In this document: positions 3,205-61,130 of the stretch, piece after piece | Numbering within the stretch: the first letter of the stretch is position 1 | How the letters are laid out: every line of letters starts with the position of its first letter | Assembly: GCA_035637235.1 (NCBI GenBank) | Contig: DASPXO010000245.1 | Location: 9,591 to 73,590 of the forward strand | From: Gemmatimonadales bacterium | GTDB lineage: Bacteria > Gemmatimonadota > Gemmatimonadetes > Gemmatimonadales > GWC2-71-9 | DNA: 64,000 nt | Direction of reading: 5' to 3' | Program-made: the position numbers and the translations under genes | Notes under the pieces: generated by a model | The model's database searches: none | What the model saw: only the letters and a program-made list of their open reading frames with translations | Told to the model about the DNA's origin: nothing

Positions 3205-6200
3205 ATGTCCATCGCCCGTCCGGCTGCGCTCACCGTTCTTGCCGTGGTCGCCGCCTCTCTGGTTGTCGCCACCTGCCGCGACAACGGCGGCCCGGAGCCG
3301 TCCACGAGGTCGACGTCGACGCCGCCGAGCTTCGCCACGTCGTCCGGCCCGGTGACGCTCGTGGGCGCGGGAAACATTGCGCGCTGCGACCGGACGGGGG
3401 ATGACCAAACCGCGAGCCTGCTCGACGGGATTCCCGGCAGCGTGTTCGCCGCCGGTGACAACGCCTTCGACAAAGGCACGCTCGACCAGTACAACAGGTG
3501 CTACAACCCGACCTGGGGCCGCCACAAGGCGCGCACCGCGCCTACGCCGGGCGACTGGGACTACAAGACGGCCGGGGCGGCGGGGTATTTCGGCTACTTC
3601 GGCGCGGCCGCCGGTGATCCCAGCCAGGGCTACTACAGCTACGACCTCGGAGCGTGGCACGTCATCGTGCTCAACAGCAACATCGCCCGGGGCGCGGGCT
3701 CCGCTCAGGAGCAGTGGCTGCGCGGCGACCTCGCCGCCCATCCCGCGCGCTGCACGCTCGCCTACTGGCACCACCCCCTGTTCGACTCCAAGGACAGTCC
3801 CAACACGAGCGTCCAACCGCTCTGGAACGATCTCTACGCCGCCGGGGCCGAGCTCGTGATCAACGCCCACTACGTCTTCTACGAGCGCTTCGCGCCGCAG
3901 ACGCCGGCGGGCGCCGCGGATCCTTCGTTCGGGATCCGGGAGCTTGTCGTCGGCACCGGGGGCGGCGGCGACGCCACGAAGTTCGGCACGATCCGGGCGA
4001 ACAGCGAGGTCCGCAACAGCGGCACGTTCGGCGTCCTGAAGCTCACGCTCGACGATGGCAGCTACGCGTGGCAGTTCGTGCCGATTCCGGGCAAGTCGTT
4101 CACCGACTCCGGCACCGGCACGTGCCACGGCGTGCCCCCGCTGTCCGTGAACGCGGGCCCCGATCTCACGGCCAGCCCCGGCACGCCGGTGAACCTTTCG
4201 GTCACGTTCACGGATCCCGGGGGCAGCACCAACGCGCCGTGGAGCTACTCTGTCGCGTGGGGCGACGGCGCCGCGAGCACGGGCACGACCCAGTCCTCGC
4301 CCATCGTGGCGTCGCACGTCTACTCCGCAGAAGGCCGGGACAGCGTGCGCGTCACGGTCACGAACGCCGCGGGCGGGTCCGGCTCGGATTCGCTGGCCGT
4401 GATCGTCTCCGCGTCCGTGTCCATGGTCTTCGTAGGCGCGGGCGACATCGGCGACTGCACCAGAACGGGCGATGACCAGACCGCCAACCTGCTCGACGGG
4501 ATTCCCGGCACCGTGTTCGCCCTCGGCGACAACGCCTACCCGAGCGGCTCGAGCAGCGACTTCACCAACTGCTACGACCCGACCTGGGGCCGGCACAAGG
4601 CCCGCACCCGGCCGGTTCCCGGCAACCACGAGTACGACACACCGGGCGCCCCCGCCTACTTCAGCTACTTCGGCGCGGCGGCGGGCGATCCCACCAAAGG
4701 GTACTACAGCTTCGATCTCGGTAGCTGGCACATCATCGCCCTGAACAGCGAGATCGCCCACGCCGCGGGATCGGCTCAGGAGCAGTGGCTGCGCGCCGAT
4801 CTCGCCGCCCACCCGGCGCTCTGCGCGCTCGCCTACTTGCATCGTCCCCTCTTCAGCTCCGGCATCCTGGCCGATCCCACGACGCAGGTCCTGTGGCAGG
4901 ACCTGTACAACGCCGGCGCCGAGGTCGTGCTCGCGGGCCACGAGCACAACTACCAACGCTTCGCCCCGCAGACGCCAGGCGGCGTGGCGGATCCGGCCAA
5001 CGGGATCCGCCAGTTCATCGCCGGCATGGGCGGCGCGGGCCATTTCAGCGTGGGCACACCCCTGCGGAACACCGAGGTGCAGGAGGACCAGACCTATGGC
5101 GTGCTGAAGCTGACGCTGTCCGCAAACGGCTACGACTGGAGGTTCATCCCCATCGCCGGCCAGACGTTCACCGACGCGGGCAGCGGCGCGTGCCATGGCG
5201 GCTCGGCAGCCGGCAATAACCCTCCCACGGCCGCGGTGGGAGGGCCCTACTCCGGTTCCGAGGGCACGACCGTAGCCTTCGATGGCAGCGGCTCGTCGGA
5301 CCCCGACGGCGACGCGCTCACCTATGCCTGGACCTTCGGGGATGGGAGCACCGGCACCGGCGTCAGGCCGACGCATGCCTACGCGGACAATCGGAGCTAC
5401 ACCGTCACGCTCACCGTCGCCGACGCGAAGGGCGCTGCGAGCTCGCCCTCCTCGACCACGACGACGATCGCCAATATGGCGCCCGCGGTGAACGCGGGAG
5501 CGAACCAGACCGCCACCGTGGGGAGCCCCTTCACGCTCAGCGCCAGCTTCAGCGATCCCGGCGTGAACGACGCGCCCTGGGCGTACGCCATCGATTGGGG
5601 CGACGGCTCCGCGCAGACGACGGGCAGCACGACGAGCCAGGGGAGTCCCATCACGGCCACGCACACCTATACCGCTGCGGGCACGAACACCGTGGGGGTG
5701 ACTGTCACCGACAAGGATGGCGAAGCGGGGTCCGGCCAGCTCACCGTGACGGTGACGACCGTGGCCAATCGGGCTCCCACCGCCGTGACCGGCGGGCCGT
5801 ACTCCGGCGTGGAAGGCACCGCTCTGAGCTTCGACGGCAGCGGGTCGTCCGACCCCGACGGCGACGCGCTCACCTATGCTTGGACCTTCGGGGATGGGAG
5901 CACCGGCACCGGCGTCAGGCCGACGCATGCCTACGCGGACAATCGGAGCTACACCGTCACGCTCACCGTCACCGACGCGAAGGGCGCTGCGAGCTCGCCG
6001 TCCTCGACCGCGACGACGATCGCCAATGTGGCGCCCGCGGTGAACGCGGGAGCGAACCAGACCGCCACCGTGGGGAGCCCCTTCACGCTCAGCGCCAGCT
6101 TCAGCGATCCCGGCGTGAACGACGCGCCCTGGGCGTACACGATTGACTGGGGCGACGGCTCCGCGCAGACGACGGGCAGCACGACGAGCCAGGGGAGTCC

Positions 6201-48005: not shown

Positions 48006-50255
48006 ATGCGGGCCACGCTGGGCGTCCTGCTCGCGCTTGCCGCCGCGGGGCCGCGGTCGCTGTTCGCGCAGGCTCCCGCCGAGCGCGCCGCGCTGGAAGC
48101 GCTGCGGGACTCGCTGGCGCGCGCGCCGGACTCGGTGGCGCTCCGGCGCCTCGAAGCGGCGACCATCGCCGTGGCGAAGCAGCATCGGGACTCCGCGTTG
48201 CTGCACCTCCGGCTCGGGTTCATCGCGTACCGCCTTGGCGAGCTGGCGCGCAGCAAGGACCACTTCGACGACGCGGCCGGGGAGTTCGAATGGGCGAGCG
48301 AGCTGCAGTCCGATTGGCCGTACCCGTGGTACGGGCTGGGGCTCGCCGAGCTGGCGCAGGGTGAGCACTCCGCAATCGCGATCGAGAACCTCCGGCAGGT
48401 CCTCGGCAAGGACTACCTGAGCCAGGCGGGGCGCGCCTTCGCCCGCGCCACGCAGGCGGACCCCGGCTTCGCGAGCGCGGCCATCGACCTCGCGGACGCC
48501 GCGCTGTCACAGCGCATCGGGCCGCGCCTCCAGGTGGCGCTCGCGGCGGTGCGGCTCGCCGCCGCCTCCCCCGCGGGTCGGAACCCGGCCGTCCAGCTCG
48601 TCCGCGGCCGGGTGGAGCGGGAGGCGGGCGACGCGGACTCGGCCCTCACCGCGTTTCAGGCCTACCTCGCGATCGGCGGCGACTCGGGGTTAGGACTCTT
48701 GGAGCTCGCGCGCTCGTATTACTTCGCGGCGCGGCAGGCGGACGGTTGGCGCACCTATTTCGCGGGCGCGCGCGCGGCGCGCACGGCGGACGCGGTGGCG
48801 TTGTACCGGGCCGACTTGAGTTTCGTCGCGAGCCCCGACGAGCTGACCCCGTTCGACGGCTTCACGTCGCCCGAGCCGCGCGCGGCGTGGCTGGAGCGGT
48901 TCTGGGCGCGGCGCGACGTGGCGGAAGCGCGCAGCCCCGGCGAGCGGCTCGCCGAGCACTATCGGCGCTGGTTCTACGCCCGCCACAACTTTCGCCTCGT
49001 CAGCCGCCACCGGCACTACGACATCACCGAGCGCTACCGGTCCGACCAGAGCGAGTTCGACGACCGCGGGATCATCTACTTGCGGCACGGTGACCCGGAC
49101 GCCCGGGCGAGCTATCCCGCGATCCCCGACCGGCTCGAGCCGAACGAGACGTGGGTGTATCACCGGAGACCGGGGGACCTCGTCTTCCATTTCGTGGCGC
49201 GGCGTGACGTGCAGGACTACAAGCTCGTGGAGAGCCTGGCCGACGCGCTGACCGCGGGGCTCGCGGGTGCCATCGCGCTCCAGAGCGGCCGCCCGTTCGA
49301 CCCAGTGCTCTCGGACTTCTTCGCGTCCCGCGCGCACATCAGCCCGGTGTACGGGCGACTCGGCAACACCGTCGGTTCGGTTGCCGCCCGCGGCGCGCTG
49401 ACCGCGGAGCGGGAGGCGGGCCACCGCAGCATCGCCCTCGGCACGATCACCGACACCTATCACCGGACCTTCGCGCAGCCGTTCGAGACGGTCGTGTCGG
49501 AGTTCGCCGTCGGCGCGCGCGGCGGGACCGGGCAGATGTTGCACGTGCTGTTCGCGATTCCGGCGCAGCGCCTCACACCCGTGCGCGATGCAGATCGCGC
49601 GATCTATCCGCTGTCGTTCCGCCTGTTCGTGTCGGACACGACGGAGAGCCTCGTGGCGCGCCTGGACACGACGCGCGTGTTCGCCGCCCGGGAGCCGCTG
49701 CGGGGCGGGATGTATCTCACCGGGCGGCTCGCGCTCGCCGTGCCTCCCGGCACCTACCGGTACCGGCTGCTCGTGGAGGAGCGGGGGAGCGATGCGGGTG
49801 ACCTCGTGACGCGCGACTCCGTCGTCGTCGGCGCCCTCGACGGGGCGCGCTTCGCGGCGAGCGATCTCGTGCTCGGCCGCGAGGGCTCGGGGCTCGTGTG
49901 GACGCCCGGCCCGGACACCGTGCCGCTCAACCCGCTCGGCCGTTTTCCGGAGGGCGGATCGGTGGAGCTCTACTACGAAATCTACGGGCTCGCGGCGGGC
50001 GCGCCCTACCACACGGTCGTGCGGCTCGGGCGCGACGGCGGGCGATCGCTGTTCCGCCGGCTGTTCGGCGGCGGGCAGGCCCCTGTGCGGTTCGAGTTCG
50101 ACGCGCCGGCCGACGGGCCGGTGACGCGCGTGCGTCGCGCCGTGGAGCTGCGCGACGCCTCCACAGGCAGCTACGTCCTGTCGGTCGAGATCCGCGACCC
50201 CGTGACGGGCGCGTCGCTCGTGCGCCGCGGCCGATTCGTCGTCGTGTCGCGCTGA
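48006..50255 (+). CDS. Secreted TPR-like / GWxTD-domain-like protein
   Basis: Signal peptide LLALAAAGPRSLFAQA. The central segment W..FW.RRD.......N....EHYRR..YA...F.........DDRG.IYLRHG.PD resembles the GWxTD (TIGR04514) pattern as I recall it, with EFDDRG in place of GWxTDRG. Confidence 0.5.
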   Translation: MRATLGVLLALAAAGPRSLFAQAPAERAALEALRDSLARAPDSVALRRLEAATIAVAKQHRDSALLHLRLGFIAYRLGELARSKDHFDDAAGEFEWASELQSDWPYPWYGLGLAELAQGEHSAIAIENLRQVLGKDYLSQAGRAFARATQADPGFASAAIDLADAALSQRIGPRLQVALAAVRLAAASPAGRNPAVQLVRGRVEREAGDADSALTAFQAYLAIGGDSGLGLLELARSYYFAARQADGWRTYFAGARAARTADAVALYRADLSFVASPDELTPFDGFTSPEPRAAWLERFWARRDVAEARSPGERLAEHYRRWFYARHNFRLVSRHRHYDITERYRSDQSEFDDRGIIYLRHGDPDARASYPAIPDRLEPNETWVYHRRPGDLVFHFVARRDVQDYKLVESLADALTAGLAGAIALQSGRPFDPVLSDFFASRAHISPVYGRLGNTVGSVAARGALTAEREAGHRSIALGTITDTYHRTFAQPFETVVSEFAVGARGGTGQMLHVLFAIPAQRLTPVRDADRAIYPLSFRLFVSDTTESLVARLDTTRVFAAREPLRGGMYLTGRLALAVPPGTYRYRLLVEERGSDAGDLVTRDSVVVGALDGARFAASDLVLGREGSGLVWTPGPDTVPLNPLGRFPEGGSVELYYEIYGLAAGAPYHTVVRLGRDGGRSLFRRLFGGGQAPVRFEFDAPADGPVTRVRRAVELRDASTGSYVLSVEIRDPVTGASLVRRGRFVVVSR

Positions 50256-50259
50256 CGAG

Positions 50260-50289
50260 TTGACACCCGCTCCGGCGGCTCCCTAAGTT
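50260..50289 (+). promoter_or_regulatory. Putative promoter TTGACA-18-TAAGTT upstream of the second kinase gene
   Basis: Consensus -35 and TAnnTT box counted directly. A GGAG Shine-Dalgarno follows at 50302-50305. Confidence 0.45.
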
Positions 50290-50311
50290 TCCCGCACTCC
50301 CCGGAGAATGG

Positions 50312-52230
<1,919 letters not shown>

Positions 52231-52258
<28 letters not shown>

Positions 52259-52764
52259 TCAACATCCATCCGACGGCCTTCATCGCCCCCGGTGCCGTGG
52301 TGGTGGGCGAGGTATCGCTCGGCCCGCGTGCGAGCGTCTGGTACGGCGCCGTGCTGCGCGGCGACATGGAGCCGATCGTGGTGGGGGAGGCCACCAACCT
52401 CCAGGACGGCACGATCGTGCACGTGGACGCCGGCCAACCGGCGCGCATCGGCGCCCGGGTCGGGGTCGGGCACGGCGCCATCCTGCACGGCTGCATCGTG
52501 GAGGACGACTGCCTCATCGGCATGGGCAGCATTCTTCTGAACGGCGTCCACATCGGCACGGGGAGCGTGGTGGCGGCGGGTGCGGTCGTGCCGGAGGGCA
52601 CCCGGGTGCCGCCCGGATCGTTGGTCGTTGGAGTCCCGGCGCGGGTGACGCGGCCCGTGGACGAGCCCCTGCGGCAGCGGATCCGCCAGAATTGGGAGCA
52701 CTACGTGGCGGAGGCGGAGCGCCACCGCGGGCACCGCTTTCCACCCGCGCAGCCAAGTTTGTGA
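52231..52764 (+). CDS. Gamma-class carbonic anhydrase-like / hexapeptide-repeat (LbH) protein
   Basis: I.P.AFIAPGAVVVGEV.LG...SVWYGAVLRGD...I.VG..TN.QDG...H is typical of the YrdA/PaaY family. No canonical start lies after the kinase stop, so GTG 52231 (or 52222), overlapping the kinase 3' end, was chosen. Confidence 0.8.
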
Positions 52765-52778
52765 TGTGAATTGGGGAA

Positions 52779-52799
52779 AGCGCCCGTGCGGCGGGCGCT
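52779..52799 (+). terminator. 8-bp GC stem-loop AGCGCCCG-tgcgg-CGGGCGCT after the LbH gene, with no T-run
   Basis: Read directly. Function uncertain. Confidence 0.3.
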
Positions 52800-52927
52800 C
52801 TCGTGCGTGGTTGCCCGGAGGCGCACGCGGGCCTACCTTGGCCCTCCGCGCTCTACAGCCCGCGCTGTTAAATTCCACATAGCTGGATGGTTTGTGGGCA
52901 CGCTCACTCCCTGAGGGACGAGCCAGC

Positions 52928-55435
52928 ATGACCGCTTCTACGCGCCGAGGGACGCTCGACCTCAACCCCAACGCGCGCACCGTGCTCGAGCGGCGCTACC
53001 TGGTGAAGGACGACCGGGGCAAGCCGAACGAGCAGCCCGAGGATCTGTTCTGGCGGGTCGCCCGGACGGTTGCCGAGCCGGACCGGCGCTACGGCGCCGC
53101 CGACCAGGCGGTCGAGGGTCTGGCCGAGACGTTCTTCGAGTTGATGGCGACGCGCGTGTGGATGCCCAACTCGCCCACCCTCATGAACGCCGGCCGGCCG
53201 CTGGGTCAGCTGTCGGCGTGCTTCGTGCTCCCGATCGACGACTGCCTCTCGAACGGCGAAAGCGGCATCTACGACACGCTCCGGGCGATGGCCCTCGTGC
53301 ATCAGTCGGGCGGCGGGACGGGCTTCTCGTTCTCCCGGCTGCGTCCGCAGAACGACGTGGTGCGCTCCACCATGGGCGTGGCGTCCGGCCCGGTGTCGTT
53401 CATGAAGTTGTACGACGCGTCGACCGACGTCGTGAAACAGGGCGGCACCCGCCGTGGCGCCAACATGGGGATCCTGCGGGTGGATCACCCTGACATCCTC
53501 GAGTTCATCACCTGCAAGGACGACCTCACGCAGGTGACGAACTTCAACATTTCGGTCGCCGTGACGGACGCGTTCATGACGGCGGTCGAGCAGGGGGCGA
53601 GCTACGACCTGATCCACCCCCGGACCGGAGCGGCCGTGGGCCAGTTCGACGCCCGCGAGGTGTTCCGCACGATCGTCCACGGCGCCTGGAAGACGGGTGA
53701 GCCGGGCGTGTTTTTCATCGACCGGGCCAACGCCTACAACCCGGTCCCGCACCTCGGGAGCTACGAAGCGACCAATCCCTGCGGCGAGCAGCCCCTGCTC
53801 CCGTACGACGTCTGCAACCTGGGCTCGATCAACGTGGGCGGGTTCGTGCGGCCGGGGCGGGGGGACGGGGAAGCCGTGGATTGGGACCGCCTGCGCACGG
53901 CCGTGCGCCTGTGCACCCATTTCCTCGACAACGTCATCGACGCCAACCGGTACCCGCTGCCGGAGATCGACGCGCTGGCGCAGCGTATCCGCCGGGTCGG
54001 GCTCGGCGTGATGGGCTGGGCGGACCTGCTGGTGCGGCTCGGCATCCCGTACAACTCCGACGAGGGGCTAGCCCTTGGCCGCCGGCTCATGGAGTTCGTG
54101 GACGAAGCCGCGAAGCTCGCCTCCGAGCAGCTCGCGGAGCAGCGGGGCGTCTTCCCCGAGTGGGAGCGCTCCATCTGGGGCCCCGACGCCACCTGCGCCC
54201 GCGGGCCGCAGGGCGAGCGCATCCGCCCGATGCGGAAGCTCCGGAACTGCAACCTCACGACCGTGGCGCCGACGGGCACGATCTCGATCATCGCCGGCTG
54301 CTCGTCGGGAATCGAGCCGCTGTTCGCGGTCTCGTTCATGCGGAACCAGGCGGGCGTCCTCATGCCCGATGTGAACGAGGACTTCGTCGCCATCGCGCAG
54401 CGGGAGGGCTGGTACTCGGACGACCTCATCCGGCGTATCGCCGAGGCGGGGAACATCCACTTCGACGAGGTGCCGGCGCAGTGGCAGCGCGTCTTCGTCA
54501 CCGCGCACGACGTGACCCCCGAGTGGCACATCCGGATGCAGGCCGCCTTCCAGGAGTTCACCGACTCGGCGATCTCCAAGACCTGCAACTTCCCCCGCGC
54601 AGCGACCGAGGAGGACGTCGAGCACATCTACCGGTTCGCCTATCAGCTCGGGTGCAAGGGTGTGACGGTGTACCGCGACGCCTCGCGCGAGATGCAGGTG
54701 TTGTCGACCGGCGCGACCGCGAAGCAGGTCCAGCAGGGGGTGACGAGCGGCGCGCCCGCGGGGGCCGCCGCAGACGTGCAGCGCCCGCTCGCCGAAGCGC
54801 TGGGACGCATCGCCGAGCTGGAGGCCGAGCTGGAGCACACCCGCGCCCGGCTGCACGACGCGGAGGCGGAGAACCTCCAGCGCCGCGCCAAGCGCTCGCG
54901 GCCGGACCTCCTGAAAGGCTCGACCCGGCGGATCGAGACGCCGCTCGGCACGATGTACGTGACCATCACCGAGGACGACCGGGGCCAGCCGTTCGAGGTG
55001 TTCATCTCGCTCGGCAAGGCGGGCGGAGCGCTCATGGCCGACGTCGAGGCCATCGGCCGCCTGCTCTCGCTCGGGCTGCGCTCGGGGATTCCCATGCGGG
55101 AGATCTACCGTCAGCTGCGGGGCATCTCGTCGGATCGGGCGGTCGGCCTCGGCCCCAACAAGGTGCTCTCGGTGCCCGACGCAATCGGCATCGCCATCGA
55201 GAAATGGATGCGAGACAAGCAGGGCGTGCAACAGGATCTCCTCGCCGAGGCGGACGGGTCGCCGGCGGTCGTGGCGACGCGGCAGGTGATCGCTGCGGAG
55301 GAGCGCGCGGCGGCGCCCCACGCGGGTGCGCCGGAGCAGGAGTTCATCGGCGCCTGCCCGGACTGCGGCTCGCAGCTGGCGTTCATCGAGGGGTGTGCGA
55401 CATGTCACGTCTGCGGGTTCAGCGAGTGTGGCTGA
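52928..55435 (+). CDS. nrdJ: Adenosylcobalamin-dependent (class II) ribonucleotide reductase
   Basis: VLERRYL, PNSPTLMNAG, SACFVL, TNPCGEQPL, TVAPTGT and KTCNFP motifs, plus the C-terminal CPDCG....CATCHVCG zinc finger. The ATG at 52928 is preferred over the TTG at 52892. Confidence 0.92.
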   Translation: MTASTRRGTLDLNPNARTVLERRYLVKDDRGKPNEQPEDLFWRVARTVAEPDRRYGAADQAVEGLAETFFELMATRVWMPNSPTLMNAGRPLGQLSACFVLPIDDCLSNGESGIYDTLRAMALVHQSGGGTGFSFSRLRPQNDVVRSTMGVASGPVSFMKLYDASTDVVKQGGTRRGANMGILRVDHPDILEFITCKDDLTQVTNFNISVAVTDAFMTAVEQGASYDLIHPRTGAAVGQFDAREVFRTIVHGAWKTGEPGVFFIDRANAYNPVPHLGSYEATNPCGEQPLLPYDVCNLGSINVGGFVRPGRGDGEAVDWDRLRTAVRLCTHFLDNVIDANRYPLPEIDALAQRIRRVGLGVMGWADLLVRLGIPYNSDEGLALGRRLMEFVDEAAKLASEQLAEQRGVFPEWERSIWGPDATCARGPQGERIRPMRKLRNCNLTTVAPTGTISIIAGCSSGIEPLFAVSFMRNQAGVLMPDVNEDFVAIAQREGWYSDDLIRRIAEAGNIHFDEVPAQWQRVFVTAHDVTPEWHIRMQAAFQEFTDSAISKTCNFPRAATEEDVEHIYRFAYQLGCKGVTVYRDASREMQVLSTGATAKQVQQGVTSGAPAGAAADVQRPLAEALGRIAELEAELEHTRARLHDAEAENLQRRAKRSRPDLLKGSTRRIETPLGTMYVTITEDDRGQPFEVFISLGKAGGALMADVEAIGRLLSLGLRSGIPMREIYRQLRGISSDRAVGLGPNKVLSVPDAIGIAIEKWMRDKQGVQQDLLAEADGSPAVVATRQVIAAEERAAAPHAGAPEQEFIGACPDCGSQLAFIEGCATCHVCGFSECG

Positions 55436-55573
55436 CCGGCCACACGGGAAGCGCGCGTGGCTGACCAGAACCGAGAGCGAAGGGCCCCGGGGTCAGCCAT
55501 CACAATTCTGCCGGTATCGCCCGTGTGACTTCTGTCACGACCTCCGGCGGCGGCGGCATGTTATCGTCTCCTC

Positions 55574-55963
55574 GTGACGATTCCGTTCCGCGCCATCACT
55601 CCGACGCGTCTGCAGGCTAAGGGCTGGGCCCGGGTCGGGAAGCCGGGCGCCCATCTGCTGCGCCGGGGCGCATGGTACCCCGTGGTGCGCATTTCGTCGA
55701 GCCACATCGTCGTGCTGGACGTGAACCGCCGCAACGTGCCCGTGGACCGCCGCTTCCTCGAGATCCGCTACCACCCCCCGGAGCGCTGGAGCATCGTGCG
55801 CTGCGAGCCGCGCGAGATCCAGCGCGTGGGGCGGATCTTCCCGCTCACGTACGCGGTCTGCCCCAGCTGCCGCCACCGGCAAGGGTTCGACGCGCAGGTG
55901 CAGGAGCTCACCTGCGAGCGCTGCAAGAAGACGGCGGTGGTGGCGTGGGATGAGCCGGGCTAG
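55574..55963 (+). CDS. Uncharacterised 129-aa protein with a C-terminal 4-Cys zinc ribbon (paralog A)
   Basis: LLRRGAWYPVV ... PPERWSIV ... TYAVCPSCRHRQGF...LTCERC. Paralogous to 56590-56955. GTG start. Its stop overlaps the convergent MOSC stop in a shared CTAG. Confidence 0.6.
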   Translation: MTIPFRAITPTRLQAKGWARVGKPGAHLLRRGAWYPVVRISSSHIVVLDVNRRNVPVDRRFLEIRYHPPERWSIVRCEPREIQRVGRIFPLTYAVCPSCRHRQGFDAQVQELTCERCKKTAVVAWDEPG

Positions 55964-56547
55964 CCGCTTCCGAGCGACGCCACCCGGTCGCCTAGCGCGA
56001 CGATCCCGGTTCCCACTCCGAGGCAGTAGAACCCCCGCGTCCCACCGTCCAGGAACTGGAGGTGGGATTTGAGCACGTCGGACTCCACCATGCCTCCGAG
56101 GGCCCAGCCGGTGAACGGGCGGCAGGGCTGGGCGACGTCGAGCACGCGCAGCCGGAAACGCTCGACCCCGTCGGCGGAGCGGACGACCACGCCGTCGCGC
56201 AGCTCGTCGAAGGTGCACCGCCCATCCGCCTCAACGAGAATGTTCTCCCCCGCGCACCCGAGCTCGATGCGATCGCCGAAGCGCGCCCGCATCTCCGCGT
56301 AGTGGGACGTGAAGCCGACCGATACGCCGTGCTCGCCGTCGGCGTTCTTGGTGTGCGGGTGCCCCCGGTGGTGGATGTCCACGATCCAGGAGCGGTCGGC
56401 CGCTTCGCCGAGCACTCCGTCCGGGCTCACCGCGAGTCGTTCCACCGGCAGGACGGGGGCGGGGTCGTAGACGCGCTGGGGTTGCTGGCCCGTCTTCAAC
56501 GACGCGCGCTGGATCTGGAGGCGGACGACACGGCCGAGGTCGCGCAT
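55960..56547 (-). CDS. MOSC domain-containing protein
   Basis: GD......H.....AVS.YS-like region, GENILV and the conserved Cys context AQPCRPF. ATG at 56547. The upstream part of the 269-aa ORF looks non-coding. Confidence 0.7.
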   Translation of the reverse strand: MRDLGRVVRLQIQRASLKTGQQPQRVYDPAPVLPVERLAVSPDGVLGEAADRSWIVDIHHRGHPHTKNADGEHGVSVGFTSHYAEMRARFGDRIELGCAGENILVEADGRCTFDELRDGVVVRSADGVERFRLRVLDVAQPCRPFTGWALGGMVESDVLKSHLQFLDGGTRGFYCLGVGTGIVALGDRVASLGSG

Positions 56548-56589
56548 AACCAAATTTAACAAAAGGCGGTATGATATGGACGGAACGCC

Positions 56590-56955
56590 ATGCGGATCAC
56601 CCTCGGCTGGGCGCGGTGTGCGGAGAACGTCGCGGACATCCTCCGGCGCGGCGCCTGGTATCGCATCGTCGAGGAGCTGGCGGACGGCCACGTGGTCGTC
56701 GCGGTCCGGGAGCAGCGGGTGCGCCTCAGCCGCGCGGACCTGACGATCCGGCAGGAGCCCCCCGATCACTGGAGCATCGTCGTTCGCACGGGTGTGCTCC
56801 GGCCGACGCTAGGAGGGAAGGGGATGGAGGTCGTCACCACCTACGCCGTTTGCCCGCTGTGCCACTACCGTCAGGACTTCGCCGGCCGGCCCAACGCGCT
56901 GCGCTGCGTGCGTTGCGGCGCCACGTCGCCGGTGGACTGGTCGGAGACGTGCTAG
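56590..56955 (+). CDS. Uncharacterised 121-aa protein with a C-terminal 4-Cys zinc ribbon (paralog B)
   Basis: ILRRGAWYRIV ... PPDHWSIV ... TYAVCPLCHYRQDF...LRCVRC. Collinear with paralog A over essentially its whole length. Confidence 0.6.
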   Translation: MRITLGWARCAENVADILRRGAWYRIVEELADGHVVVAVREQRVRLSRADLTIRQEPPDHWSIVVRTGVLRPTLGGKGMEVVTTYAVCPLCHYRQDFAGRPNALRCVRCGATSPVDWSETC

Positions 56956-57024
56956 GTGTCGCGGGGGCGCCCGAAATACTTAGCATCCTAACAATCAACC
57001 TGTTAACTACCACCGGGCCGCCGC

Positions 57025-57486
57025 GTGTCCGACCGCTCCGAGCTCGCCTTGCAGCTCACTGAAGCCATTGCCGCCGCGCAGGGTGCCGTGCAGCGGGCGG
57101 GGGACCGCGCATTCCGCGCCTACGGCCTGTCGCACCGCGCGCACGCCGTCTTGAACGCCGTGGACCAGGGCGGCCCCGACGGGGCCCGGCCCAAGGACAT
57201 CGCCGAGCTGCTCGGCGTGTCGCGCGCCGCGGCCACGACGTTCATCCAGCGGCTCGAGACCAAGCGACTCGTCGACACCACGCGGGATGCGGCGGACGAC
57301 CGCGGGGTGCGCGTCACGCTCACGCGGCACGGCCTGGAGGTGTTACTGCGGGTCGGCCTGCTCGAGCGCCGCCTGGGCGCCCGGGCCATCGAGGGGATGC
57401 CCGCCTCGAGCCTCGCGCGCGCGGTGCACGTGCTCCGGGAGTTCAAGCGGCGGCTCGGGGAGAAGCAGATCGGGGTGGTGCCCTAG
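57025..57486 (+). CDS. MarR-family transcriptional regulator
   Basis: Winged-helix pattern: AVLNAV...G..P.DIAELLGVSRAA.T.FIQRLE.K.LV.......D.R.V.V.LT..G. Confidence 0.85.
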   Translation: MSDRSELALQLTEAIAAAQGAVQRAGDRAFRAYGLSHRAHAVLNAVDQGGPDGARPKDIAELLGVSRAAATTFIQRLETKRLVDTTRDAADDRGVRVTLTRHGLEVLLRVGLLERRLGARAIEGMPASSLARAVHVLREFKRRLGEKQIGVVP

Positions 57487-57529
57487 AGCGGCCCCTGGCA
57501 CGCGATTGGTGAGCAGCGACAACCCCGGG

Positions 57530-58948
57530 ATGGGAGCTTCGCACTTGATCCGCCGCACGAAGATTGTCGCGACGCTCGGTCCGGCGACCGGGACTTCCGA
57601 GCGGGTCGCGGCGCTGATCGACGCAGGCGCGAACGTGATCCGCGTGAACGCCTCGCACGGCACGCCGGAGCTGCGCGCGGGGTGGATCGCCGCGGCGCGC
57701 CGGGGGGCGGAGGCGGCGGGCGCGCCGGCCTGCGTGCTCGTGGACCTGCAGGGGCCGCGCATCCGCGTCGGGACGCTCCCGCATGCGCGCACCCTCCGTC
57801 CCGGGGAAACGGTGGTGTTCGCGCCGGAGCACGCGGCGCGCGGCGACGAGCTGCCGACGACCTACGACGAGCTCGCTCGCGACGCGCGGGCCGGCGCCCG
57901 GATCCTGCTCGACGACGGCCTGCTCTCCGTCGACGTCACGCGGATCGATCCACCGCGGGTGGAAGCGCGCGTCGTGGACGGCGGCATGCTCACCTCGCAC
58001 AAGGGGATGAACCTTCCGGGGCTGGTGGTGAGCGCGCCGGCGCTGACGGAGAAGGACCGGGAGGACGCCGCGCACGCCGTCGAGCACGGTTGCGATTACC
58101 TCGCGCTCTCATTCGTGCGCCGGGCGGAGGACCTCGCCGAGCTGAGGGGACTCGCTCCCGAAACCATAAAGCTCGTGGCCAAGATCGAGAAGGCCACGGC
58201 CCTCGACGACCTCGAGCGCATCCTCCAGGCGTGTGATGCGGTGATGGTGGCCCGCGGCGATCTGGGCGTCGAGCTGCCCTTCGAGGAAGTGCCCGTGGTG
58301 CAAAAGCGCCTCATCCGGGAGGCGAACATTCACGGGAAGCCCGTGATCACCGCGACGCAGATGCTCGAGTCGATGGTCCACCACCCGCGGCCGACCCGGG
58401 CCGAGGCGTCGGATGTGGCGAACGCCATCCTCGACGGCACCGACGCCGTGATGCTCTCGGCGGAGACGGCCGTCGGGGAGTATCCCGTGGAGGCGGTGCG
58501 GGCGATGGACCGGATCATCCGCGAGATGGAGCGGCACAGCCTGGGCGGGCGGCGCGACGAGCGGCGCATCCGCGCCGACCGCGCCGTGTCGGTCGAGGAC
58601 GCGATCGCGCTGGGGACGAGCGCGGTAGCGCGGATGCTCCGGACACCGGTCATCGTCACGCTCACGAAGGGCGGCTTCACCGCCCGCAAGGTCGCCGCGC
58701 AGCGACCGCCGGTGCCGATCCTGGCCGTGACCACCGAGCCCGCGACGTACCGGCAGCTCGCCCTGGTGTGGGGCGTGACCCCGGTGCTGGTGGACCGCGT
58801 TCCGGGCTACGACGCGATGCTCGCCGTGGTGCGCGACCTCATCCTCAAGCGCGGCTACGCGCGGGCGGGGGACCGGATCGTGATGACCGCCGGCGTGCCG
58901 TGGGAGGTGTCCGGCGCCACCAACCTGCTCAAGGTCGAGGTCGTCTGA
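57530..58948 (+). CDS. pyk: Pyruvate kinase
   Basis: RRTKIVATLGPA, RVNASHG, DLQGPRIR, MVARGDLGVE and ATQMLESM motifs. 472 aa. Confidence 0.95.
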   Translation: MGASHLIRRTKIVATLGPATGTSERVAALIDAGANVIRVNASHGTPELRAGWIAAARRGAEAAGAPACVLVDLQGPRIRVGTLPHARTLRPGETVVFAPEHAARGDELPTTYDELARDARAGARILLDDGLLSVDVTRIDPPRVEARVVDGGMLTSHKGMNLPGLVVSAPALTEKDREDAAHAVEHGCDYLALSFVRRAEDLAELRGLAPETIKLVAKIEKATALDDLERILQACDAVMVARGDLGVELPFEEVPVVQKRLIREANIHGKPVITATQMLESMVHHPRPTRAEASDVANAILDGTDAVMLSAETAVGEYPVEAVRAMDRIIREMERHSLGGRRDERRIRADRAVSVEDAIALGTSAVARMLRTPVIVTLTKGGFTARKVAAQRPPVPILAVTTEPATYRQLALVWGVTPVLVDRVPGYDAMLAVVRDLILKRGYARAGDRIVMTAGVPWEVSGATNLLKVEVV

Positions 58949-58949
58949 C

Positions 58950-59729
58950 GTGCGCCTCGTGTTTCTCGGCACCGGCACGTCGTACGGCGTGCCCCAGATC
59001 GGCTGCCGCTGCCGGGTGTGCACGTCGAGCGATCCCCGGGACAAGCGCACCCGTACTGCGGCGCTGATCGAGTCGGGCGGGCGGCGGCTCCTCATCGACA
59101 CGCCGCCCGAGCTCCGGCTGCAGCTCGTCGCCGCTGGGGTGGCTGCGGTGGACGCGGTGCTGTTCACCCACTCGCACGCCGACCACGTCCACGGGATCGA
59201 CGACCTGCGCGCGCTCACGGTGCGGCGGGAGGCCCGCCTGGCGGTGTACGGTCCGGCCGCGGCGATGGCGGAGCTGGCGCAGCGGTTCGGCTACATCTTC
59301 GACGCGACGCCCGCGCAGCCGGGCACGAGCAAGCCCGAGCTCGCCGCGGAGGTGCTGGCGCCGGACCGCGAGACGGAAATCGCCGGGATGCCGGTGCGTC
59401 CCCTGGCGCTGCCCCACGGCGACCGCACGGTGTTCGGGTATCGCGTGGGCCCGATCGCCTACCTGACGGACGCGAAGCACATCCCCGACGCGGCCCGCAC
59501 GCGGCTCGCGAGACTCGAACTGCTGGTGCTGAACGCCCTGCTGCCGCGGCCGCATCCGCTGCACCTCTCGATCCCCGAAGCCGTGGCGACGGCGCAGCAA
59601 ATCGGCGCGCGGCGGACGTTCCTCACGCATCTCACCCACGAAACGCTGCACGAGGAGCTCGCGGCCCGCCTCCCCCACGGGATTGCGCCGGCGTACGACG
59701 GGCTGGTCATCGACGTGGGCGCTGTCTAG
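58950..59729 (+). CDS. MBL-fold metallo-hydrolase (PhnP-like)
   Basis: FLGTGTS.GVPQIGC.C..C N-terminus and the FTHSHADHVHG zinc motif. Confidence 0.8.
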   Translation: MRLVFLGTGTSYGVPQIGCRCRVCTSSDPRDKRTRTAALIESGGRRLLIDTPPELRLQLVAAGVAAVDAVLFTHSHADHVHGIDDLRALTVRREARLAVYGPAAAMAELAQRFGYIFDATPAQPGTSKPELAAEVLAPDRETEIAGMPVRPLALPHGDRTVFGYRVGPIAYLTDAKHIPDAARTRLARLELLVLNALLPRPHPLHLSIPEAVATAQQIGARRTFLTHLTHETLHEELAARLPHGIAPAYDGLVIDVGAV

Positions 59730-59753
59730 ATTCGACCGCAGGAGGACGGTCCC

Positions 59754-61130
59754 ATGTCGAACCCACTCGCAGCGACGCTGCGGCGGTTCCAGAGCCCCTC
59801 GGTGCGCCAGAGCGCGGCGATGGACGCGCTCGTGCGGCAGGCGGTATTCGGGATGCCGGAGGAGCGGGAGCAGGCGCGCTGGCTCATCTGGGAGATCGGC
59901 CAGGCGGCGGGTGTGCGTCCGGCCTCGATCCACGGGCTGTACATGGCGCGGGGCCGCGGCGAGATCCCGCCATTCACCACGCCCGCCATCAACGTGCGGG
60001 TCCTCGCCTACGACTCGGCGCGCGCGCTGGTCCGGGCCGCGCAGCGTCTCGACGTCGGCGCGGTGATCTGCGAGATCGCCCGCAGTGAGATCGGCTACAC
60101 CGACCAGCGGCCCGCCGAGTACGTGGCGGTGATGACCGCGGCGGCGCTGCGCGAGGGCTTCGCAGGGCCGCTCTTCATCCAGGGCGACCACGTGCAGGTG
60201 AATGCCAAGAAGTACGCGGCCGACCCCGAATCCGAGCTCCAGGCGGTGCGCACGCTCGTGGAGGAGGAGCTCCACGCCGGCTTCTATAACATCGACGTGG
60301 ACACCTCGACGCTCGTGGATCTGTCGCAGCCCACGCTCGACGAGCAGCAGCGCGTCAACTACGAGCGCGCGGCCGAGCTGACCCGGTTCATCCGCGACCG
60401 CGAGCCGGACGGCGTGACGGTGTCGGTCGGCGCGGAGATCGGCGAGGTGGGCGGCAAGAACTCGGACGTCCATGAGCTGCGGGCCTTCATGGAGGGGTAT
60501 AGCCGGACGCTGCGGCGGCTCGGTCCCCACGTCGGCATCAGCAAGATCTCCGTGCAGACCGGGACCAGCCACGGCGGCGTGGTGCTCGCCGACGGCTCGA
60601 TCGCGCAGGTGCAGCTCGACCTCGAGGCGCTGAAGACGCTGTCCCAGGAGGCGCGCTCCCGGTACGGTCTGGGCGGCGCGGTCCAGCACGGCGCGTCCAC
60701 GCTGCCGCCCGAGGCGTTCGGCAGTTTCCCCACGTGCGAGGCGATCGAGATCCACCTCGCCACCAACTTCCAGACCATCGTCTTCGACCACCCGCAGCTC
60801 CCGGCGGGGCTGCGCGCCGAGCTCAACGAATGGGTGAAGGCCGAGTGCAAGGACGAGTGGAAGAAGGGCGACACGGAGCAGCAGTTCCTCTACAAGAGCC
60901 GCAAGAAGGCGATCGGCCCGTTCAAGCGGACGCTGTGGGACCTGCCGGCGGACACGCGGGCGGCCATCGCGGCGGACCTCGAGCGGACGTTCGCCTTCCT
61001 GTTCGAGCAGCTCCGGGTCACGAACACACGCGACATCGTCGCTCGCCACGTCAAGCCGCCGCTGCAGTCACACGCGCAGCCGCGCCCGGTGGCGGTCGCC
61101 GCCCCGGACGACATGGAGGCGGGCGAGTGA
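59754..61130 (+). CDS. Class II fructose/ketose-bisphosphate aldolase family protein (long form)
   Basis: INVRVL, QGDH, NIDVD.S, GAEIGEVGG, VQTGTSHGG and QHGAST motifs match class II aldolase metal- and phosphate-binding regions. Confidence 0.65.
   Translation: MSNPLAATLRRFQSPSVRQSAAMDALVRQAVFGMPEEREQARWLIWEIGQAAGVRPASIHGLYMARGRGEIPPFTTPAINVRVLAYDSARALVRAAQRLDVGAVICEIARSEIGYTDQRPAEYVAVMTAAALREGFAGPLFIQGDHVQVNAKKYAADPESELQAVRTLVEEELHAGFYNIDVDTSTLVDLSQPTLDEQQRVNYERAAELTRFIRDREPDGVTVSVGAEIGEVGGKNSDVHELRAFMEGYSRTLRRLGPHVGISKISVQTGTSHGGVVLADGSIAQVQLDLEALKTLSQEARSRYGLGGAVQHGASTLPPEAFGSFPTCEAIEIHLATNFQTIVFDHPQLPAGLRAELNEWVKAECKDEWKKGDTEQQFLYKSRKKAIGPFKRTLWDLPADTRAAIAADLERTFAFLFEQLRVTNTRDIVARHVKPPLQSHAQPRPVAVAAPDDMEAGE

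Follow-up and report, generated by a model that had tools for sequence, protein, structure and literature searches.

PhnA/YjdM- and DUF35-type proteins join a zinc ribbon to a small beta-barrel, with the ribbon placed first. NrdR, a repressor of nrd genes built from a zinc ribbon and an ATP-cone, is encoded beside nrdJ in Streptomyces. The products of two genes, paralogs A and B, lying in a 64,000-nucleotide stretch of Gemmatimonadales DNA (hereafter the window), have the same two building blocks and a similar size as PhnA/YjdM and DUF35 proteins, but in reversed domain order and in unrelated genomic contexts. No PhnA or DUF35 barrel was matched in a Pfam scan, and zf-ChsH2, a rubredoxin-like ribbon presumably of the DUF35 kind, gave a sub-threshold match in three family members. 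The likeness to NrdR is that of a small zinc-ribbon protein whose gene adjoins a ribonucleotide reductase gene. However, the ribbon of NrdR is N-terminal and followed by the ATP-cone, whereas that of the A/B family is C-terminal and no ATP-cone was matched in Pfam or NCBIfam, and an NrdR-like regulator was rejected on these grounds; no NrdR-box-like tandem palindromes were recognised near A. With generic zinc ribbons (TiaS PF23783, and the IS1595, TFIIB and IBR types) the family shares the C-terminal 35 residues, with two CxxC knuckles on beta-hairpins, but these families are without the N-terminal barrel, and Y.VCP.C..R together with the C-terminal W is specific to the A/B family.

Paralog A (positions 55574-55963, plus strand) starts with GTG and encodes 129 aa with a pI of 10.6, and belongs to subfamily A (tail AWDE..); paralog B (56590-56955, plus strand) starts with ATG and encodes 121 aa with a pI of 8.9, and belongs to subfamily B (tail DWSETC). 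A first-pass annotation, made from the sequence by eye, had described them as collinear paralogs that are roughly one-third identical. The paralogy held in a proper alignment while the identity proved higher, with BLASTP giving 40% over 121 columns (E=1e-23), so that A and B are paralogs with a similarity far beyond chance. The shared blocks named at that time (LRRGAWY, a VV..V stretch, PP..WSIV and TYAVCP.C..RQ.F...L.C.RC) are all present in the alignments. Orthologs fell into two clean groups, with 65-89% identity among the A orthologs and 62-85% among those of B, and dN/dS values of 0.12 (A) and 0.17 (B) show that purifying selection acts on both. Relatives of both genes, those of A most strongly, occur in soil metatranscriptomes, where the proposed check for expression found matching RNA contigs that share 80-95% identity with the window; eight soil datasets cover A at a depth of 10-29, with depths of 2-20 at the nrdJ 3' end and 0-9 for B and MOSC. 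Significant paralogy, purifying selection, many homologs and these contigs all bear out the view that the two copies are real and functional, and the earlier reading of two uncharacterised paralogous zinc-ribbon proteins was supported by every test that we ran.

Clustered at 90% identity, the matches from profile searches numbered 1,260, 1,451 and 2,580; at 50% identity there were 419 representatives. All organism-named homologs in these searches were labelled Gemmatimonadetes, Gemmatimonadales or Gemmatimonadota, and the 80 genome loci that we kept all had Gemmatimonadota-type names but one, titled 'uncultured bacterium'. The family has so far been seen only in Gemmatimonadota, and with hundreds to thousands of homologs the worry that related genomes might hold none can be dismissed. 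That the proteins fit no recognised family was also correct, since Pfam, NCBIfam and PDB sequence searches gave only sub-threshold generic zinc-ribbon matches. The best Pfam and NCBIfam scores of A and B were 13-16 bits versus curated cut-offs of 22-30, and a Pfam scan of 83 further family members likewise reached no curated threshold, many of them showing sub-threshold generic zinc-ribbon matches. Neither single proteins nor profiles identified a family when searched against PDB sequences; the top match was the zinc ribbon of TiaS (E=0.003), which contacts tRNA. At the sequence level no DNA- or RNA-binding family was matched. Membership of an anti-phage defence or phage family was considered and discarded, as the matches there were at the level of the ribbon only (PADLOC, E=0.026; PHROGs, E=9e-4). 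Literature searches found no prior description of the family.

The family comprises at least five subfamilies (A, B, X, C and D) with median pI values from 8.8 to 10.2, and its members are basic proteins of about 120 aa (pI about 9-10.5) with several paralogs per genome. Invariant residues are WAR, LRRGAWY, P..W, Y.VCP.C..R, C..C and the C-terminal W. By position and by sequence, A is orthologous to the X gene that other lineages carry as a single copy, and B is an older diverged paralog, both being diverged copies from a large uncharacterised family. Most members belong to subfamilies C and D, whose copies are dispersed and monocistronic, in unrelated contexts far from nrdJ and MOSC.

AlphaFold models of the two proteins (pLDDT 78.7 and 80.3) gave the barrel plus 4-Cys ribbon on which the structure-prediction check at a pLDDT of about 80 rests. 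In the model of A, residues 1-16 form a low-confidence tail, residues 17-76 an SH3/KOW-like barrel, residues 79-85 a helix and residues 92-123 the zinc ribbon, with C96, C99, C114 and C117 as predicted zinc ligands. B has the same domain layout, with C88, C91, C106 and C109 as predicted ligands, and two extra subfamily-conserved cysteines, C10 within WARC and the C-terminal residue, C121. The four ribbon cysteines are invariant across 150 family members, and those of A sit on strands 92-95/102-104 and 111-113/120-123 (pLDDT 85-96), so that in the modelled ribbon a pair of beta-hairpins each carry one CxxC knuckle, with four putative metal ligands in all, as expected of a zinc-ribbon fold. The earlier assignment as a zinc ribbon therefore stands for the C-terminal part but does not describe the whole protein, the N-terminal two thirds of which is modelled as a small SH3/KOW-like beta-barrel of five to six strands and about 60 residues. 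Each protein is apparently one compact unit, with the N-terminal barrel predicted to pack against the C-terminal C4 ribbon, a combination that no solved structure matches.

Foldseek searches (two against the PDB and one against viral models) returned nothing below 1e-3, with lowest E values of 0.047 in the PDB and 0.006 among the viral models. The weak matches were all SH3-like barrels, eukaryotic SH3 domains included, and those that bind nucleic acid included the KOW domains of Spt5 and kin17, OapB, ribosomal proteins and integrase C-terminal domains. Likeness to the Spt5/NusG KOW, kin17, OapB, KOW-type ribosomal and integrase C-terminal barrels consists of a small barrel, basic charge and a place in the top Foldseek rows, but the matches lie at E>0.04 with 7-17% identity and without a KOW motif, and nothing in SH3-like/KOW barrels corresponds to the conserved WAR and LRRGAWY motifs. 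The KOW-barrel matches in particular (E 0.047-0.17, rmsd 11-12 Å) fall short of a structural match, and the Pfam KOW profile (PF00467) gave no match at E<=0.1 in any member scanned.

Our best guess is that these proteins are small nucleic-acid-binding regulators: the basic surface formed by barrel and ribbon would bind nucleic acid or nucleic-acid-bound machinery, and the proteins would work on their own as small regulators. Neither basic charge nor an SH3-like fold is proof of nucleic-acid binding, and the lack of a significant structural match speaks against it. An alternative, in which the barrel of a lineage-specific accessory factor binds RNA polymerase or the ribosome rather than free nucleic acid, would suit small, basic, stand-alone proteins with several paralogs in one phylum, the relatively abundant A-type RNA, and the presence of Spt5/DSIF KOW domains and KOW-type ribosomal proteins among the top weak fold matches. 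Those matches are non-significant, however, with poor full-length rmsd; sequence searches recognised no factor family, KOW and CarD included, and the loci examined showed no link to ribosomal or RNA polymerase genes. We consider this alternative decidedly unlikely.

The first-pass annotation had suggested looking for co-occurrence with MOSC or MarR genes, but the most conserved neighbour proved to be neither of them: it is nrdJ, immediately upstream. This gene (52928-55435, plus strand, from a probable ATG at 52928; the listed ORF begins at TTG 52892) encodes a class II (B12-dependent) ribonucleotide reductase, whose orthologs carry the Pfam domains Ribonuc_red_lgN, Ribonuc_red_lgC and TSCPD. 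An Rfam scan (E<=1) over positions 50000-60000 turned up no genuine RNA family, and no B12 riboswitch precedes nrdJ. The NrdJ C-terminus carries a six-cysteine tail, CPDC-x10-CxxCxxC-x4-C, which matches the six-cysteine array described in PMC5704485. Of 83 related loci, 75 have a ribonucleotide reductase gene immediately before A, as do 21 of 26 loci before an X-type gene, and nrdJ adjacency was also found in loci L084, L088, L098 and L101. In L101, three tandem subfamilies follow nrdJ and the start of the first copy overlaps the nrdJ stop (ATGA); in L098, an oppositely oriented aldolase gene lies between nrdJ and X. Across deep lineages one to three tandem family copies follow nrdJ. The home locus of the family is thus immediately 3' of nrdJ, and the A/B pair is one case of repeated tandem duplication at this site within a single-phylum family.

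An oppositely oriented MOSC gene does lie between the paralogs, as had been annotated. It is YiiM-like (55960-56547, minus strand), convergent with A and divergent from B, encodes 195 aa with a QPC motif, and scored above the gathering cut-off of Pfam PF03473 (27.7 bits versus 22.7, E=3e-6); a sequence search for a close relative with a solved structure found none. Its true start is ATG 56547 and not GTG 56769 of the long ORF, as 195 aa fits the 194-196 aa of its orthologs. MOSC separates A from B in 72 of the 83 related loci, follows X-type genes convergently in 8 of 22, and is missing at L001, L044, L045, L084, L088 and L098, so that it is a recurrent, frequent but dispensable convergent neighbour. 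We had considered a clade-specific insertion and dropped this idea, since the metagenome scan placed MOSC after X-type genes as well. The stops of A (TAG, 55961-55963) and MOSC (CTA, 55960-55962) share one CTAG as reported earlier, but this overlap is incidental because only 4 of 76 related loci have it, the A-MOSC gap ranging from -4 to +162 nt with two aberrant values aside; a meaning for the shared stop was ruled out accordingly. The gene after B is indeed a MarR-family regulator (57025-57486, plus strand, 153 aa; PF12802 MarR_2, E=6e-12), which in synteny tallies is conserved as a neighbour only within the A/B clade. Of the two neighbours proposed, MOSC therefore recurs often without being required and MarR is confined to one clade, whereas nrdJ is the deepest conserved.

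MOSC-family enzymes need an external electron donor. Apart from sequence, the neighbourhood of nrdJ and MOSC, two redox enzymes, is the strongest clue to function, and it favours a protein partner as much as a regulator. Such a partner would dock on, regulate or feed electrons to the zinc-finger tail, or Cys-rich domain (CRD), of the class II reductase and/or the MOSC reductase, its 4-Cys site being a redox-active or iron-binding centre and not purely structural zinc. The native reductant of CRD-type class II reductases has been reported as unknown, thioredoxins and glutaredoxin being inactive (PMC5704485), and the NrdJ of the window has the six-cysteine CRD tail. Consistent with a partner, no neighbour of subfamilies A, X, B and C is better conserved than nrdJ, the L101 copy is translationally coupled to it through the ATGA overlap, two metatranscriptome contigs span nrdJ to A and so link the nrdJ 3' end to A, and MOSC recurs beside both the A/B clade and X-type lineages. 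However, CRD-type NrdJ is widespread while the family was found only in Gemmatimonadota, so that the A/B family cannot be a general reductant. MOSC is absent from many loci and, being convergent, is never co-transcribed, and most members (C, D) are distant from both genes.

The ribbon itself also argues against an electron carrier. It resembles rubredoxin in having four cysteines, two knuckles and one CPxC, and the family genes adjoin electron-requiring enzymes, but the knuckles of rubredoxin are about 29 residues apart rather than 14, and its Gly (CxxCG ... CPxCG) and aromatic signature is missing from these basic proteins. A rubredoxin identity was rejected at an hhalign probability of 2.4%, and a split NrdJb-like gene with homology to the NrdJ CRD at 2% against the C-terminal 230 aa of the window NrdJ, which retains its own six-Cys tail. 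The CxxC-x14-CxxC spacing and the weak Pfam matches suit ordinary structural zinc ribbons, and a pI near 10 would be unusual for an electron carrier. On balance we consider a partner of the reductase tail or MOSC unlikely, and its most specific form, a dedicated partner of the Cys-rich tail (perhaps of MOSC too) that delivers or gates reducing equivalents and so fills, in Gemmatimonadota, the reductant role for CRD-type NrdJ, less probable still.

The control regions suggest that each gene has its own promoter. At 55524-55538 lies TGTGACTTCTGTCAC, a conserved palindrome whose core, TGTGA-N6-TCAC, is of the CRP type; its centre is some 42.5 nt before the A start codon, and it is unique in the window. 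In 66 of 88 loci a single exact TGTGAC-N4-GTCAC precedes A by about 50 nt, and a relaxed core was found at the same position in 78 of 83 A-type loci. Variation is confined to the N6 spacer and the other arm shows no compensation, which suggests a DNA-binding site rather than an RNA hairpin; an RNA hairpin or nrdJ terminator was rejected for the same lack of compensation and because no T-run follows. Anchored comparison of 84 upstream regions points to a -10-like hexamer, TATCGT (55562-55567, plus strand), 6 nt before the A start, with TATTCT or TAGTCT in relatives. The start lacks a Shine-Dalgarno sequence, so that the mRNA of A is probably leaderless, and its promoter resembles an activator-dependent one of the class II CRP/FNR type. 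One related RNA contig starts some 7 nt ahead of the A start codon. Another reaches 59 nt further upstream, and together with the contigs joining nrdJ to A it speaks against the leaderless reading of A.

B had also been noted to lie between the two most AT-rich stretches, and in the window, which is 71.5% GC overall, positions 56548-56577 (70% AT) and 56974-57003 (67% AT) are indeed the top 30-nt windows, the matching 40-nt windows ranking first and second as well. Both stretches are probably promoter/operator regions. The first, the divergent intergenic region of 42 nt (56548-56589), holds two back-to-back -10-like boxes: TTAAAT on the minus strand (56559-56554), which lies 6 nt before the MOSC ATG, so that the MOSC mRNA too is probably leaderless, and TATGAT on the plus strand (56570-56575), 14 nt before the B ATG. 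The pattern CAT-AAC-nnAATyTArCAAAAC-n4-TAkSAT is conserved there in 72 related loci. The second contains a MarR promoter/operator-like element, TTAGCATCCTAACAATCAACCTGTTAACTA (56980-57009). Set beside 61 intergenic regions between B and MarR, it proves to be a degenerate version of TTAGTATGTTAACTATCAACATGTTAACTA, the consensus for the clade, which has two GTTAAC boxes 15 bp apart. A consensus sigma-70 promoter and terminator scan of 55300-57700 found nothing canonical, and the promoter calls therefore rest on cross-species conservation.

Separate promoters, together with terminator-like hairpins after nrdJ in L084 and L088, are what would be expected if the neighbourhood had no functional meaning and the proteins had an unrelated role, for example as stress-responsive small proteins. 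The block of Ser/Thr kinase, hexapeptide protein, nrdJ ... pyruvate kinase and MBL hydrolase genes is syntenic across the phylum while the genes inserted in it differ, so that nrdJ adjacency may be inherited rather than functional, and the dispersed paralogs have no common neighbours. Against such an old syntenic block as the whole explanation, nrdJ adjacency outlasts many local rearrangements that replaced all remaining neighbours, the nrdJ site continues to gain fresh duplicates, and one copy overlaps the nrdJ stop codon; we regard it as doubtful, though with a real chance of being right. The explanation that we prefer overall, if tentatively and short of an even chance, is a Gemmatimonadota-only, nrdJ-linked family of small nucleic-acid-binding regulators. 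According to this model, the ancestral copy would have been tied to dNTP supply and replication, and tandem duplication at the nrdJ home site would have been followed by dispersal of copies (subfamilies C and D).

Gemmatimonadota are abundant in soil and have few cultured members. The family merits a definition and a first experiment, because thousands of sequences, paralogs, purifying selection and transcription stand beside the lack of any curated database entry. Its fixed position after nrdJ is of note in view of the question of the physiological reductant of zinc-finger-tailed class II enzymes (PMC5704485). Should the proteins prove to be nucleic-acid-binding regulators, the conserved CRP-type site and the seemingly leaderless promoters would offer an initial look at how promoters and regulons are organised in the phylum.

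Both small zinc-ribbon ORFs lie on the plus strand at the positions that the first-pass annotation had claimed, A at 55574-55963 (GTG start, 129 aa) and B at 56590-56955 (ATG start, 121 aa), and its observation was confirmed in all details. The proposed paralogy was borne out by BLASTP (40% identity, 50% positives, E=1e-23), and every block quoted as shared is present in the alignment. The minus-strand gene between them matched the MOSC family PF03473 above the gathering score; its stop codon overlaps that of A in one CTAG (55960-55963), as had been described, and its start is the ATG at 56547, giving a protein of 195 aa (orthologs, 194-196 aa). The MarR gene said to follow B was found at 57025-57486, and the AT-rich stretches said to flank B are indeed the top two 30-nt and 40-nt AT windows in a sequence of 71.5% GC overall. 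The argument that the paralogs are real genes was also upheld, by many homologs, low dN/dS and matching RNA contigs. A profile built from A and B retrieved 1,260 clusters (90% identity, E<=1e-3), the best 120 of which split cleanly in two, one group sharing 65-89% identity with A and the other 62-85% with B. Against orthologs, the median dN/dS (Nei-Gojobori) came to 0.12 in 82 pairs for A and to 0.17 in 36 pairs for B; pS was about 0.5. Expression was likewise supported, since assembled RNA contigs from eight metatranscriptome runs (soil, rhizosphere and related sources) matched the window at 80-95% identity, with mismatches at third codon positions. Word depth was 10-29 for A, 2-20 for the nrdJ 3' end and 0-9 for B and MOSC. 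Contig depth says little about expression level, and some DNA may have been carried over; these data show the presence, not the amounts, of RNA, for A-type and more weakly for B-type genes.

No family had been recognised for these proteins, and Pfam, NCBIfam, PADLOC and PHROGs gave zero matches above threshold; the recurrent sub-threshold matches were generic zinc ribbons only, covering the last 35 residues. Two AlphaFold2 predictions, made with 41 and 150 aligned sequences, were concordant (pLDDT 78.7 and 80.3; pTM 0.67 and 0.69). In A, disordered residues 1-16 precede a small barrel (strands 17-21, 34-40, 45-50, 53-58, 62-65 and 72-76), a short helix (79-85) and a four-stranded ribbon (92-123) bearing C96, C99, C114 and C117. 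The 4-Cys zinc ribbon seen at first pass therefore stands, its four cysteines being invariant and the ribbon modelled, but it is not the whole protein, which has the N-terminal barrel too. Invariant across 150 members are W18, R30, G32, A33, W34, Y35 and V75 in the N-terminal part and Y93, V95, C96, P97, C99, R102, C114 and C117 in the C-terminal part. B-type proteins have two extra conserved cysteines, one in a WARC motif of the N-terminal region and one as the final residue. The proteins are basic, with a pI of 10.6 for A and 8.9 for B and subfamily medians of 8.8 to 10.2.

Foldseek searches against the PDB and viral models returned no match below E=1e-3. Without exception, the best of the weak matches were SH3-like barrels, among them eukaryotic SH3 domains, Spt5/DSIF KOW domains, kin17, OapB, ribosomal proteins of the KOW type and C-terminal domains of retroviral integrases. 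Identity as a KOW protein was excluded at the sequence level, and a role as a factor that binds to RNA polymerase or to the ribosome seems quite unlikely to us. Among PDB sequences, the family profile best matched the TiaS zinc ribbon (E=0.003). At the fold level, the family joins two common modules; neither a curated family nor a solved structure represents the combination or the family, and the library searched held no paper on either. NrdR was excluded, because it has an ATP-cone, which the A/B family lacks, and carries its ribbon at the opposite terminus.

Searched exhaustively with a profile, 1.84 billion representatives yielded 419 clusters at 50% identity (E<=1e-3), 216 of them reaching E<=1e-10. 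At 90% identity, profiles of distant members retrieved 2,580 clusters in one search and 1,451 in another. Organism names, carried by a minority of matches, were always Gemmatimonadetes, Gemmatimonadales or Gemmatimonadota, and 79 of the 80 loci kept from the genome scan were named within Gemmatimonadota, the remaining one being titled 'uncultured bacterium'. Judged from the named matches, the family is likely confined to this phylum. Clustering and subfamily HMMs separated five subfamilies, which we named A (tail AWDELS, window paralog A), B (DWSETC, window paralog B), X (DW.NPC, the single-copy gene of other lineages), C (AWDE.YL, the largest in number) and D (AWWETG, dispersed). X is nearer to A (42%) than to B (33%), and A and B are the only members in the 64-kb window.

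In 83 related loci the prevailing order is nrdJ(+), the class II (B12-dependent) ribonucleotide reductase gene, A(+), MOSC(-), B(+), MarR(+), pyruvate kinase(+) and MBL hydrolase(+), an arrangement that 55 of them keep in full; in 72, A and B are separated by MOSC. Two loci (L001, L044) have A directly beside B without MOSC, one (L045) has A alone, and in 13 the B-MarR gap is about 2.5 kb, filled by an ABC-transporter pair in L002, where the genes were read. In more distant lineages (L084, L085, L088), one X-type gene follows nrdJ, with DUF819, GcpE, SIR2, PK and MBL downstream and neither MOSC nor MarR; in L098-L100 an oppositely oriented aldolase gene separates nrdJ from X. L101 (4138-5366) and L102 carry C-type, B-type and X-type copies in tandem after nrdJ, the ATG of the first overlapping the nrdJ TGA as ATGA. 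The X-type profile recovered 80 additional loci from metagenomes; nrdJ was immediately upstream in 21 of the 26 X-type loci that had 500 nt or more of sequence on that side, and a convergent MOSC ortholog followed the family gene or genes in 8 of the 22 loci with sufficient downstream sequence, in three of these 8 behind two tandem X-type copies. The dispersed C and D copies stand as monocistronic genes among neighbours that have nothing in common. The family has its home just 3' of nrdJ, where duplicates have arisen repeatedly, and MOSC recurs as a convergent neighbour but is dispensable. Of the co-occurrences proposed for checking, that with MOSC held in both A-type and X-type loci, but MarR is limited to the A/B clade. 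The CTAG stop overlap occurs in 4 of 76 loci and is therefore incidental. That the neighbourhood has no functional meaning, a reading that overlaps with a regulatory role, we consider doubtful. In L084 and L085, nrdJ and X are separated by a 61-aa ORF (4798-4983) that is hydrophobic in its C-terminal half and stands 17 nt before X; it may encode a small membrane protein, and it was absent from what was seen of the window.

Upstream of A, the palindrome TGTGACTTCTGTCAC (55524-55538) occurs once in the window. The exact form TGTGAC-N4-GTCAC is found, once each, in 66 of the 88 loci compared, some 50 nt ahead of A, and the core TGTGA-N6-TCAC is conserved there in 78 of 83 A-type loci. Variants change at two N6-spacer positions only, uncompensated in the other arm, and no T-run follows, a pattern that suits a DNA site bound by protein better than a hairpin. 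About 23 nt downstream lies a conserved -10-like hexamer, TATCGT (55562-55567; TATTCT or TAGTCT in relatives), ending 6-8 nt before the start codon, and no Shine-Dalgarno sequence precedes A in the window. If transcription begins at the start codon, the palindrome is centred near -42, the site position of class II CRP/FNR-type activation, whose geometry the A promoter would then share. The RNA contigs are ambiguous on this start: one starts some 7 nt ahead of the first codon, another reaches 59 nt further upstream, and two metatranscriptome contigs join nrdJ and A. In L089 and L090, a perfect TGTGA-N6-TCACA (TGTGAATTCTTTCACA, 1383-1398) placed directly ahead of a RuBisCO-large-like gene suggests that a regulator of such specificity exists in the group, which may have a CRP-like regulon.

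The 42-nt MOSC-B gap holds two conserved -10-like boxes back to back. The minus-strand box (within 56548-56559) is 5-6 nt before the MOSC ATG, so that the MOSC mRNA is probably leaderless; the plus-strand box is 14-25 nt before the B ATG. Before MarR, 56980-57009 is a degenerate version of an element that carries two GTTAAC boxes and is near-invariant in the clade (TTAGTATGTTAACTATCAACATGTTAACTA); in the window the first box has turned into CCTAAC. The stretch is most simply read as a putative MarR promoter and operator. Both AT-rich stretches are thus predicted promoter regions. Several relatives have short tandem repeats (for example of GACGTCT and CGGATGA units) between this element and the MarR start. 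Boxes 5-8 nt from the start codon without a Shine-Dalgarno sequence were seen at A, at MOSC and, in several relatives, at MarR; leaderless mRNAs may be common in this Gemmatimonadales lineage.

The region upstream of nrdJ (52760-52927) contains a conserved promoter-like TTGCCC-N17/18-TACCTT and, after it, a conserved leader of about 100 nt, with GTTAAATT and a hairpin-like GGTGAGCAAGCTCACC immediately before the ribosome-binding site GAGGGACGAG; the window version of the hairpin is GTGGGCACGCTCAC, its stem preserved by a G-U pair. Rfam has no family for this leader, possibly a regulatory element of class II ribonucleotide reductase that has yet to be described. Further upstream, the motif AAGTTTGTGATGTGAAT (52755-52775) is conserved in related loci, for example as AACTTTGTGATGTTAATACTCGG (L046-L058) and CAAGTTTGTGATGTGAATT (L033, L048, L052). 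The final 17 nt of nrdJ including the stop (55421-55437, AGCGAGTGTGGCTGACC) recur 29 nt downstream (55450-55466, AGCGCGCGTGGCTGACC; 88% identity), possibly a remnant of a small 3'-end duplication.

The predicted structure, the charge, the weak similarities and the occurrence as several stand-alone paralogs, each under its own regulation, are best fitted, tentatively, by small nucleic-acid-binding regulators whose ancestral copy would be tied to a dNTP-supply gene. We regard it as unlikely that the 4-Cys protein is a partner or electron donor of NrdJ and/or MOSC, and as very unlikely that it is specifically the NrdJ reductant. This reading is suggested by the neighbourhood: MOSC enzymes require an external electron donor, and a 4-Cys protein is retained between or beside NrdJ and MOSC. 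The window NrdJ, moreover, ends in a six-Cys array (CPDC-x10-CxxCxxC-x4-C); such a Cys-rich zinc-finger domain was shown to mediate turnover in class II enzymes, and that study failed to find its native reductant, thioredoxins, glutaredoxin and lysates all being inactive (PMC5704485). However, the family is basic, has been seen in one phylum only, and has most of its members elsewhere in the genome. It also lacks profile similarity to rubredoxins (probability 2.4%) and to the NrdJ tail (probability 2%), which excludes identity as a rubredoxin or a split NrdJ tail.

We rate A and B as members of a new family of small zinc-ribbon proteins, from one phylum so far, with a distinctive barrel and home locus. 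Lineage-specific hypothetical families are commonplace, but this one stands out as large, clearly functional and well defined in its regulatory signature; it is cheaply testable and bears on a question about class II ribonucleotide reductases.
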